A stretch of DNA of 21,539 bases from a virus. Its lineage: Duplodnaviria; Heunggongvirae; Uroviricota; Caudoviricetes. Position numbers and translations under genes: made by a program. The stretch lies in IMG/VR virus record IMGVR_UViG_2565956714_000006, positions 1 to 21,539 of that record. One strand, 5' to 3'. Shown piece by piece: positions 1,216 to 2,728 of the stretch; within the stretch, counting starts at the first letter, position 1; each line of letters begins with the position of its first letter. The notes beneath the pieces were generated by a model, which made no database searches, was not told the DNA's origin, and saw only the letters and a program-made list of their open reading frames with translations.

Positions 1216-1419
1216 TTACATATTCATGTTCAGGAATATCGGTGCAATGAACACAAAAAGGACATTTCCAGCAATGAATCCATTTATTTTTTGTTCTTTT
1301 GAAACAATACGATAGCTTCTTAGAAGCCAATCCACAAGCATGCAAATCAAAACCGTTGGACAGTAGACGATCATTATGGTAACTGCTGCAACTATATACT
1401 GTACAATTTCACTAGGCAT
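1216..1419 (-). CDS. Small hydrophobic ORF (67 aa, two predicted TM segments) in an AT-rich remnant between int and IS5; possibly a moron remnant or spurious
   Basis: ATG-initiated ORF with an in-frame stop just upstream, so it is not an IS5-truncated longer gene. Weak Shine-Dalgarno, AT-rich rare codons. Stop codon abuts the int stop. Confidence 0.25.
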   Translation of the reverse strand: MPSEIVQYIVAAVTIMIVYCPTVLICMLVDWLLRSYRIVSKEQKINGFIAGNVLFVFIAPIFLNMNM

Positions 1420-1444
1420 TAAAGATTTTCACTATGGTTACTAG

Positions 1445-2640
1445 GGAAGGTGCGAACAAGTCCCTGATATGAGATCATGTTTGTCATCTGGAGCCATAGA
1501 ACAGGGTTCATCATGAGTCATCAACTTACCTTCGCCGACAGTGAATTCAGCAGTAAGCGCCGTCAGACCAGAAAAGAGATTTTCTTGTCCCGCATGGAGC
1601 AGATTCTGCCATGGCAAAACATGGTGGAAGTCATCGAGCCGTTTTACCCCAAGGCTGGTAATGGCCGGCGACCTTATCCGCTGGAAACCATGCTACGCAT
1701 TCACTGCATGCAGCATTGGTACAACCTGAGCGATGGCGCGATGGAAGATGCTCTGTACGAAATCGCCTCCATGCGTCTGTTTGCCCGGTTATCCCTGGAT
1801 AGCGCCTTGCCGGACCGCACCACCATCATGAATTTCCGCCACCTGCTGGAGCAGCATCAACTGGCCCGCCAATTGTTCAAGACCATCAATCGCTGGCTGG
1901 CCGAAGCAGGCGTCATGATGACTCAAGGCACCTTGGTCGATGCCACCATCATTGAGGCACCCAGCTCGACCAAGAACAAAGAGCAGCAACGCGATCCGGA
2001 GATGCATCAGACCAAGAAAGGCAATCAGTGGCACTTTGGCATGAAGGCCCACATTGGTGTCGATGCCAAGAGTGGCCTGACCCACAGCCTGGTCACCACC
2101 GCGGCCAACGAGCATGACCTCAATCAGCTGGGTAATCTGCTGCATGGAGAGGAGCAATTTGTCTCAGCCGATGCCGGCTACCAAGGAGCGCCACAGCGCG
2201 AGGAGCTGGCCGAGGTGGATGTGGACTGGCTGATCGCCGAGCGTCCCGGCAAGGTAAAAACCTTGAAGCAGCATCCGCGCAAGAACAAAACGGCCATCAA
2301 CATCGAATACATGAAAGCCAGCATCCGTGCCAGGGTGGAGCACCCGTTTCGCATCATCAAGCGGCAGTTCGGCTTCGTGAAAGCCAGATACAAGGGGCTG
2401 CTGAAAAACGATAACCAACTGGCGATGTTATTCACCCTGGCCAACCTGTTTCGGGTGGACCAAATGATACGTCAGTGGGAGAGATCTCAGTAAAAACCGG
2501 AAATAACGCCAGAAATGGTGGAAAAAATAGCCTAAATAGGCTGATTCGATGTGTTTGCGGGAAAAAAATCGGCCCAGATCCGCGAAATTTTAATCAGCGA
2601 GTCAGCTTGGGAAGAAATGACCTGCTTATTCGCACCTTCC
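1445..2640 (+). mobile_element. IS5-family insertion sequence (IS5 variant), about 1.2 kb, boundaries +/-1 bp
   Basis: Terminal inverted repeats GGAAGGTGCGAACAAG (1445-1460) and CTTATTCGCACCTTCC (2625-2640) bracket an InsH-type transposase. Flanking 4-mers are CTAG (left) and TTAA (right): both fit the YTAR target but do not match. Confidence 0.9.
1477..2493 (+). CDS. insH: IS5 transposase InsH (338 aa from first ATG; canonical 326-aa form starts at [12 protein letters not shown], nt 1513)
   Basis: Near-identical over its length to the E. coli IS5 InsH sequence as recalled, with a few substitutions ([20 protein letters not shown]). Confidence 0.95.
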
Positions 2641-2728
2641 TTAACTATGAGATGAGTCTATGCAAAAAGATCTGTTGAATATTGCGTTCTATATATTTGG
2701 TTTTTGCACATTCCTGGTGTTTGCAAAG

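Follow-up and report, generated by a model that had tools for sequence, protein, structure and literature searches.

In the prophage of Sf6 (Lederbergvirus Sf6), the integrase gene int and the late operon converge, and a conversion gene and the tailspike gene lie between the two. The attP core is annotated 5′ of int in the Sf6 record, so that int of an integrated prophage naturally converges with the 3′ end of the late operon. In the related phage P22, the tailspike is the product of gene 9, and heads of gene 9 mutants can be activated in vitro by tail parts. A further described system that bears on the present locus is the insertion sequence IS5, which duplicates its target YTAR and prefers nearby sites for transposition in E. 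coli (Lee et al. 2016, PMC5009759). When direct IS5 copies recombine, the DNA between them is lost and a single recombinant copy stays behind, and 46% of such deletions are 3 kb or shorter (PMC5009759).

The DNA analyzed here (i.e. the whole stretch of 21,539 nt, hereafter the window) represents, judged by its sequence, one half of an Sf6/P22-like prophage, the half next to argW, in E. coli HVH 91 (4-4638751). It matches scaffold KE705263.1 of assembly GCA_000457305.1 with 100% identity over 14,726 nt; the strain is that given as source for a protein encoded on a neighboring scaffold. This scaffold ends about 260 bp beyond the end of the window, inside the nin region, and the early half of the prophage is off the scaffold. 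The NinI protein was found to be widespread in an identical-protein look-up. The features of the window considered here are:

1..1215, + strand: int, an intact IntS-type tyrosine integrase of 404 aa (Pfam Arm-DNA-bind_3, Phage_int_M, Phage_integrase)
1216..1444, no strand: retained int-proximal 229 bp of the 391-bp int–EpsG spacer, 100% identical to intact relatives
1445..2640, + strand: IS5-family insertion sequence of 1196 bp (nucleotide identity, terminal inverted repeats)
1477..2493, + strand: IS5 DDE transposase ORF, 338 aa, uninterrupted (DDE_Tnp_1, 1.3e-35; DUF772, 3.4e-21)
2641..2728, no strand: retained 88 bp downstream of gp16; alignments to L003, L004, L008, L009, and Sf6 begin exactly at 2641
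2660..2737, + strand: unannotated hydrophobic 25-aa ORF (MQKDLLNIAFYIFGFCTFLVFAKLF), conserved and open in eight distinct DNA variants including Sf6
2729..4726, − strand: P22 gp16-type DNA ejection protein, 665 aa, the last surviving gene of the late operon (Pfam Phage_P22_gp16)
4726..16281, − strand: gp20, gp7, gp14, gp26, gp10, gp4, coat, scaffold, portal, TerL, and TerS, full length and with no internal stops

In the source scaffold, the tRNA-Arg(CCT) gene argW lies 161 bp upstream of the int ATG (the tRNA was found in L035), and yfdC is also located upstream of int. The locus hence combines an IntS-type integrase adjoining tRNA-Arg(CCT) with an attP 5′ of int. Convergence of int and the late operon is the normal arrangement in such a prophage; it is the content between them that is abnormal. 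The original prediction, which was made for this DNA from its sequence, had described the usual P22/Sf6-like order as one in which the conversion genes are followed by att/int. Given the Sf6-type position of attP 5′ of int, no att site is expected in the present interval.

The surviving late operon follows the P22-type order TerS, TerL, portal, scaffold, coat, gp4, gp10, gp26, gp14, gp7, gp20, and gp16. Assignments are supported by the Pfam families Sf6_terminase, Terminase_3, P22_portal, P22_CoatProtein, P22_Tail-4, and Phage_stabilise as well as DUF2824, P22_gp7, Inj_translocase, and Phage_P22_gp16. The genes for holin, endolysin, Rz, and Q and the nin genes are also present in the window, again at full length and with no internal stops. 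The other head, tail-hub, ejection, and lysis genes are intact and display 93–100% identity to the intact relative L009, with values of 100% for gp4 and 99.4% for gp10. When compared with intact phages, gp4, gp16, and gp20 are 99.8–100% identical. The gp16-like protein is identical in the relatives L008, L009, and L011, where the tailspike gene comes next, and shares 98.5% identity with Sf6 gp13.

No tailspike was detected in the window by tblastn with the tailspikes of six relatives, all of which share the conserved P22 head-binding N-terminus (best E = 0.19). Searches of the same window with the EpsG-family protein, Arc, and two acyltransferases gave nothing better than E = 0.19. Furthermore, every ORF of at least 150 aa was assigned to a function other than tailspike, which bears out the original prediction that the window contains no tailspike-sized ORF. 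A head-binding tailspike (PF09008) downstream of gp16 is thus absent from the window, and a tailspike occupies that position in L008, L009, L011, L006, and L001. As no tailspike follows gp16, the window unit is a defective member of the P22-like prophages.

The intact relatives L008, L009, and L011 show what the position held. Their gene order is int (404 aa), a gene for a membrane protein of the EpsG family (351 aa, or 379 aa if another start is chosen), the gene for a 688-aa tailspike (Head_binding plus beta-helix), and gp16. Among the contexts listed for the exact int protein, an EpsG-family gene adjoined int in all nine others, and the module of int, EpsG-family gene, and tailspike is also found at argW in the completely sequenced E. 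coli strains H2 and A23. We therefore rejected the idea that the tailspike had never been present, since relatives with identical flanks have one. By the same comparison, the slot for tailspike and conversion gene is indeed empty, as had been proposed. Window positions 1–1444 correspond to L009 17038–15595, and window position 2641 onward corresponds to L009 12086 downward. L009 12087–15594, i.e. exactly 3,508 bp with a GC content of 34.8%, is missing from the window, where the IS5 element is found instead. Both ends of the missing interval are exact in this comparison with intact relatives, which the original prediction had suggested as a check. The lost interval begins 229 bp beyond the int stop and ends at a point 76 bp ahead of the ATG of the tailspike gene; within it lay 162 bp upstream of the EpsG-family gene, the EpsG-family gene itself, a shared terminator, and the entire tailspike gene.

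The interval between int and gp16 (1216–2728) can accordingly be read base by base as 229 bp of spacer, the 1196-bp IS5-family element, and 88 bp. The ORF map and the sequence confirmed exactly the spacing reported earlier, with the gp16-like gene ending at 2729, 88 bp from there to IS5, and 229 bp from IS5 to the int stop. The left spacer (1216–1444) has a GC content of 34.5% and closes with CTAG at 1441–1444, the left IS5 target 4-mer. Together with int, it is the same in L008, L009, and L011 at 1444 of 1444 nt. Past 1444, intact relatives read TTGATTTTC... and continue into the EpsG-family gene. The right segment opens with TTAA at 2641–2644, which is the IS5 target 4-mer on that side; intact relatives have this segment directly adjoining the 76 bp ahead of the tailspike ATG.

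These segments had been described as about 300 bp of AT-rich remnant, a description that did not hold: they are two untouched edges of the cassette, the 229 bp being 100% identical to the relatives. The 88 bp contain the conserved 25-aa ORF. Its ATG lies 19 bp downstream of the IS5 end, and it is convergent with gp16, whose end it overlaps by 9 nt. Two further ORFs were discarded. A 67-aa ORF (1216–1419, − strand) was considered as a remnant of gtr or oac, but it has no Pfam match and the spacer is intact in the relatives. A gene-caller ORF at 2475–2678 (+ strand) crosses the IS5 end and was treated as spurious. A scan of window positions 1–3200 against Rfam, with E up to 1, returned no RNA family.

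The inserted element has 16-bp terminal inverted repeats, GGAAGGTGCGAACAAG and CTTATTCGCACCTTCC, at 1445–1460 and 2625–2640, which match at 15 of 16 positions. When the ATG at 1513 is taken as the start, as the gene callers did (L010, L035), the transposase has 326 aa. A length of about 1.2 kb, 16-bp repeats of the type GGAAGGTGCGAAYAAG, a single DDE transposase ORF, and high nucleotide identity to reference IS5 all place the element in IS5. The IS5 copies of phage P1 are 95.6–95.9% identical to it, and the best E. coli copy annotated as 'IS5-like element IS5 family' is 99.9% identical. By these identities, the element is an isoform of IS5 rather than a canonical copy. A property of IS5 insertions that is not found here is a matching pair of flanks: of the 4-bp flanks, CTAG stands to the left of the element and TTAA to its right, although both fit YTAR. 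Because CTAG and TTAA differ, a simple insertion is ruled out and a deletion joint is indicated.

The intact sequence reads ...GGTTACTAG|TTGATTTTC at the left breakpoint and ...GATTTG|TTAACTATGAG at the right one, and CTAG and TTAA are each present once in it. As expected for an IS-mediated deletion, both flanks align collinearly with the intact reference, and precisely the stretch from one 4-mer to the other is gone. An IS5-linked deletion of the EpsG-family gene and the tailspike gene from an Sf6/P22-like argW prophage thus very probably explains the window. In the ancestor, argW and int would have been followed by an O-antigen-type conversion gene of the EpsG family, the tailspike gene, gp16, and the other late genes, in this order. 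An element of the IS5 family would then have inserted at a YTAR site within the low-GC cassette. The subsequent loss of 3,508 bp could have followed either of two routes: (a) a nearby second IS5 copy, produced by a local hop, and recombination between the direct copies, or (b) intramolecular IS5 transposition leading to an adjacent deletion. Either route would end with a single IS5 copy between the unequal 4-mers CTAG and TTAA, and the scar left by the two is the same.

A search of 5,426 complete E. coli genomes did not find the deletion allele, which was seen in the source strain only. A precursor allele, with IS5 present and the cassette kept, was found neither in these 5,426 genomes nor in JGI metagenomes or GTDB species representatives. 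Exact patterns of the IS5 junctions, in either orientation of IS5, gave no matches for the left junction in JGI metagenomes or for the right junction in GTDB species representatives. Since the left flank is 100% identical to the relatives, the gp16 protein is identical, the late genes are intact, and the allele is absent elsewhere, the deletion appears to be recent and strain-specific.

A search of the host genome for tailspikes had likewise been proposed, and here the outcome went against the expectation of the original prediction: a full-length tailspike is encoded in the same assembly, GCA_000457305.1, within a second P22-like late region. An HVH 91 protein is the representative of the 90%-identity cluster that contains the relatives' tailspike, and it is encoded on scaffold KE705262.1 (25.7 kb). 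This second unit, referred to as unit B (the window unit being unit A), comprises gp26, gp14, gp7, gp20 (458 aa), gp16 (605 aa), and an IS3, followed by sieA, a repressor, a Bro/antirepressor, Arc, and the full-length tailspike of 688 aa, a description that covers all but 8.5 kb of the scaffold. No identical copy of the window gp10 protein was found on KE705262.1 in an identical-protein look-up. The unit B tailspike differs by one or two residues from the alleles of L008, L009, L006, and H2. Past its stop, 142 bp of native sequence with a terminator hairpin are retained, ending 6 bp short of the end of the EpsG-family gene in the relatives. At this point, a junction (J2) joins the sequence to the arm on the xis side, at a distance of 16 bp from the attP core of Sf6. 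Unit B has no EpsG-family gene, int, or attP core. An independent Logan contig, L027, spans J2, whereas a search of the 5,426 complete E. coli genomes did not find this junction.

With respect to particles, the window unit is, to judge from its gene content, unable to make its own tailspike, i.e. its adsorption organelle. Upon induction, unit A alone would be expected to yield DNA-filled P22-type heads with a tail hub, which would carry no tailspikes and would not adsorb. By analogy with P22, co-induction could change this outcome, and supply of the unit B tailspike in trans may plausibly render unit A heads infectious. The P22 tailspike reportedly joins finished heads in a last, separable step, an observation said to go back to Israel, Anderson and Levine in 1967 (reference 14 of PMC3741392), and it is this separability that makes supply in trans mechanistically plausible. 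The unit B tailspike should also fit the tail of the window unit, because gp4 and gp10 are identical or nearly so to their L009 counterparts, with which the same tailspike allele is natively paired. The proposal that the prophage is adsorption-defective thus probably applies to the unit on its own; in the strain, particles may be equipped in trans with the near-identical tailspike encoded on KE705262.1.

Whether the joint itself is genuine has to be judged on a short-read draft assembly and on one Logan contig across the right junction. This contig (L015, run SRR785531) is 100% identical to window positions 5413–2616 and stops 25 nt inside IS5, so that the junction of gp16, the 88 bp, and IS5 is independently reproduced. 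An assembler collapse of two IS5 copies enclosing the EpsG-family and tailspike genes might nevertheless have created a false deletion: the scaffolds are built from short reads, IS5 is multicopy in E. coli, and such a collapse would likewise give flanking 4-mers that differ. The junctions implied would be IS5|CTAGTTGATTTTC on the EpsG side and GATTTGTTAA|IS5 on the tailspike side. We consider a collapse highly improbable, however, as the one tailspike gene of this kind that was found in the assembly has another context (Arc upstream, xis downstream), and the window contains no Ns. Moreover, contig L027 runs unbroken through both A-type branch points (L026, about 9986 and 12209), which favors a single tailspike copy, and no HVH 91 accession is among the four listed for each named member of the EpsG-family cluster. 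The earlier suggestion of a helper-dependent, tail-less module, in the sense of a capsid/DNA-delivery element that evolved to dispense with its tailspike as a life-style, much as capsid-forming satellites borrow the tails of helpers, would fit the facts that the receptor-binding protein alone is lacking and that a co-resident unit encodes a matching one. It is nonetheless extremely improbable. The window keeps the gene set of a whole phage (Q, nin, lysis, terminase, head, tail hub, and ejection genes), its flanks are 100% identical to intact phages, with gp4, gp16, and gp20 at 99.8–100%, and the joint is an IS scar in an allele known from HVH 91 only, not a conserved architecture. Comparison with satellites (P4-like, PICI, and capsid-forming PICI) revealed neither a reduced genome nor an architecture conserved across lineages.

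A different question, compatible with an IS5-linked deletion, is how the two units are arranged in the host. Possibly, units A and B are physically linked at argW as a tandem or composite prophage, in which A would have kept int and lost the EpsG-family gene and tailspike to IS5, B would have kept the tailspike and lost the EpsG-family gene, int, and attP core, and the island overall would have a tailspike. Circular or tandem phage DNA would be required for a joint of the J2 type to arise, and a unit that has neither int nor attP would be incapable of integrating alone. The end of KE705263.1 in the nin region would fit repeats common to two units; A and B are also 97.6% identical up to window position 5357, and L015 starts at 5413, near the point of divergence. 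On the other hand, no read or contig joins the scaffolds, unit B may sit elsewhere through homologous recombination or be non-chromosomal DNA of the culture, and the occurrence of J2 in 0 of the 5,426 complete genomes leaves no model architecture for comparison. On balance, we regard physical linkage as a possibility to be taken seriously, though not as the likelier case. The further step, that A and B form one argW tandem island shaped by complementary degeneration, with A keeping int and attL, B keeping the tailspike, and each supplying what the other lacks, is less likely still, and we mention it with corresponding reserve. If it were true, both copies of the EpsG-family gene would have been purged, hinting at selection against an O-antigen-type function in this host. 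A tandem island would also hold a tailspike elsewhere in the same prophage, the finding which the original prediction had set against its own reading, and which would then apply to the island as a whole.

Sf6-like prophages at argW, IS5, and IS-mediated deletions are all well known, and the IS5-linked loss described here is a case of ordinary insertion-sequence-driven prophage decay. Its use lies in resolving, at the level of single base pairs, how an insertion sequence makes an otherwise intact temperate phage defective through loss of the receptor-binding protein and the conversion gene. It also cautions annotators that a missing tailspike is not to be taken for a new life-style, and that the search for a tailspike needs the whole genome, as a near-identical one was located here in a second P22-like unit. 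Should the units be linked or co-induced, HVH 91 would represent a natural case of complementation between prophages. The one mildly interesting angle is a possible complementary decay of co-resident P22-like units, with both EpsG-family copies gone.

Compared with Sf6, the window shares the IntS type of integrase, the order of the late genes, the position of attP 5′ of int, and the convergence of int on the late operon; the proteins corresponding to gp13/gp16, gp12/gp20, and gp8/gp10 are 98–99% identical. The slot differs, as it holds oac and a 623-aa endorhamnosidase tailspike in Sf6, whereas in the window lineage it was filled by an EpsG-family gene and a 688-aa tailspike, in place of which IS5 is found today. 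The window also has another mosaic type of coat, scaffold, portal, gp4, and tail needle, with 19–53% identity to Sf6. The joint resembles the IS5 deletions described in E. coli in having a single IS5 at a novel joint, unmatched flanks that fit YTAR, and a lost interval of about 3 kb, the size class that dominates deletions caused by IS5 or IS1 after local hopping (PMC5009759). In contrast to those deletions, which arose in a mutation-accumulation line (PMC5009759), the window stems from a natural isolate and shows no two-copy intermediate, and its element is an isoform about 96% identical to canonical IS5. With P22 gene 9 mutants, the window unit would share DNA-filled heads that have a gp4/gp10/gp26 hub and no tailspike and that could be rescued in trans, as predicted by analogy; it differs from them in that its lesion is a deletion and that the conversion gene is lost too. 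Finally, the remnants in E. coli H2 and A23 have the same cassette of int (404 aa), EpsG-family gene, and tailspike at argW, and likewise show erosion driven by IS elements or deletions: in A23, an IS1 truncates the tailspike, and in H2, gp16 is fused to early-left genes. Both kept the cassette and lost morphogenetic genes, whereas the window displays the reverse.

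Next to the gp16-like gene of the window, an unannotated reading frame was detected between this gene and IS5:

Window 2660-2737, plus strand: ORF of 25 aa, hydrophobic, unannotated, MQKDLLNIAFYIFGFCTFLVFAKLF

The frame is convergent with gp16 and overlaps the end of that gene by 9 nt. It was uninterrupted in eight distinct DNA variants among the relatives, including Sf6, whose record carries no annotation for its copy. As IS5 lies on the upstream side, only 19 bp from the ATG, the native upstream region has been lost in the window. In some relatives, an Arc gene precedes the ORF on the same strand.

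Further members of the lineage differ in their surroundings and state of preservation. A Logan contig from run SRR16777254 (L037, positions 1-5305) contains the same module, made up of the 404-aa int followed by the genes for the EpsG-family protein and the tailspike. Here, the module is preceded by P4-like satellite genes (primase/DUF927, Psu, and Ogr/Delta) in place of yfdC and argW, suggesting that a satellite and a P22-like prophage are stacked at the same tRNA site. Two E. coli prophage records belong to the lineage as well, each eroded in its own way: (i) in strain A23 (L005, 10671-13394), IS1 truncates the 5′ end of the tailspike gene and the late genes are all gone; (ii) in strain H2 (L006, 13209-16468), the early-left genes ead, lar, and xis are fused to gp16.

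An unusual joint was detected in the second P22-like unit of HVH 91 (L026, scaffold KE705262.1, positions 12209-12212). There, the tailspike terminator runs straight into the xis-side arm at a point 16 bp from the attP core. The unit lacks the attP core itself as well as int and the EpsG-family gene, and the joint was found in none of 5426 complete E. coli genomes. This arrangement suggests either that the phage genome is int-less or that the prophage is tandem or composite. Two Logan contigs from different samples (L014 and L015) both break within 55 bp in the interval of window positions 5357-5468. Since the near-identity of the window unit and the second unit ends close by in HVH 91, the contig break probably marks the edge of a repeat in the graph built by the assembler.

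The conversion gene lost from the window together with the tailspike gene is the following:

L009 (intact relative) 14377-15432, and further relatives: EpsG-family (Wzy-like) membrane protein gene, 31% GC

One source names its product 'O-antigen polymerase Wzy'; to our knowledge, the effect of this protein on the O antigen is uncharacterised. Its protein cluster comprises only 24 member sequences, and all named members are from E. coli. Outside the cluster, the nearest matches are unnamed (60-66% identical), followed by matches of about 44% identity, one being from Enterobacter huaxiensis.

The spacer between int and the EpsG-family gene holds another reading frame:

Window 1216-1419, minus strand: ORF of 67 aa, hydrophobic, whose stop codon directly adjoins that of int

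It was called by one gene caller in a relative (L030), is about 100% identical among all available copies, and had no match in a Pfam search. Because homology of common intS alleles to the window int ends at about nt 1153, the low-GC EpsG/tailspike cassette has its mosaic boundary within the int 3′ end (1153-1215). This boundary inside the gene gives the window integrase, which has 404 aa versus 385 aa in standard IntS, its different and longer C-terminus.
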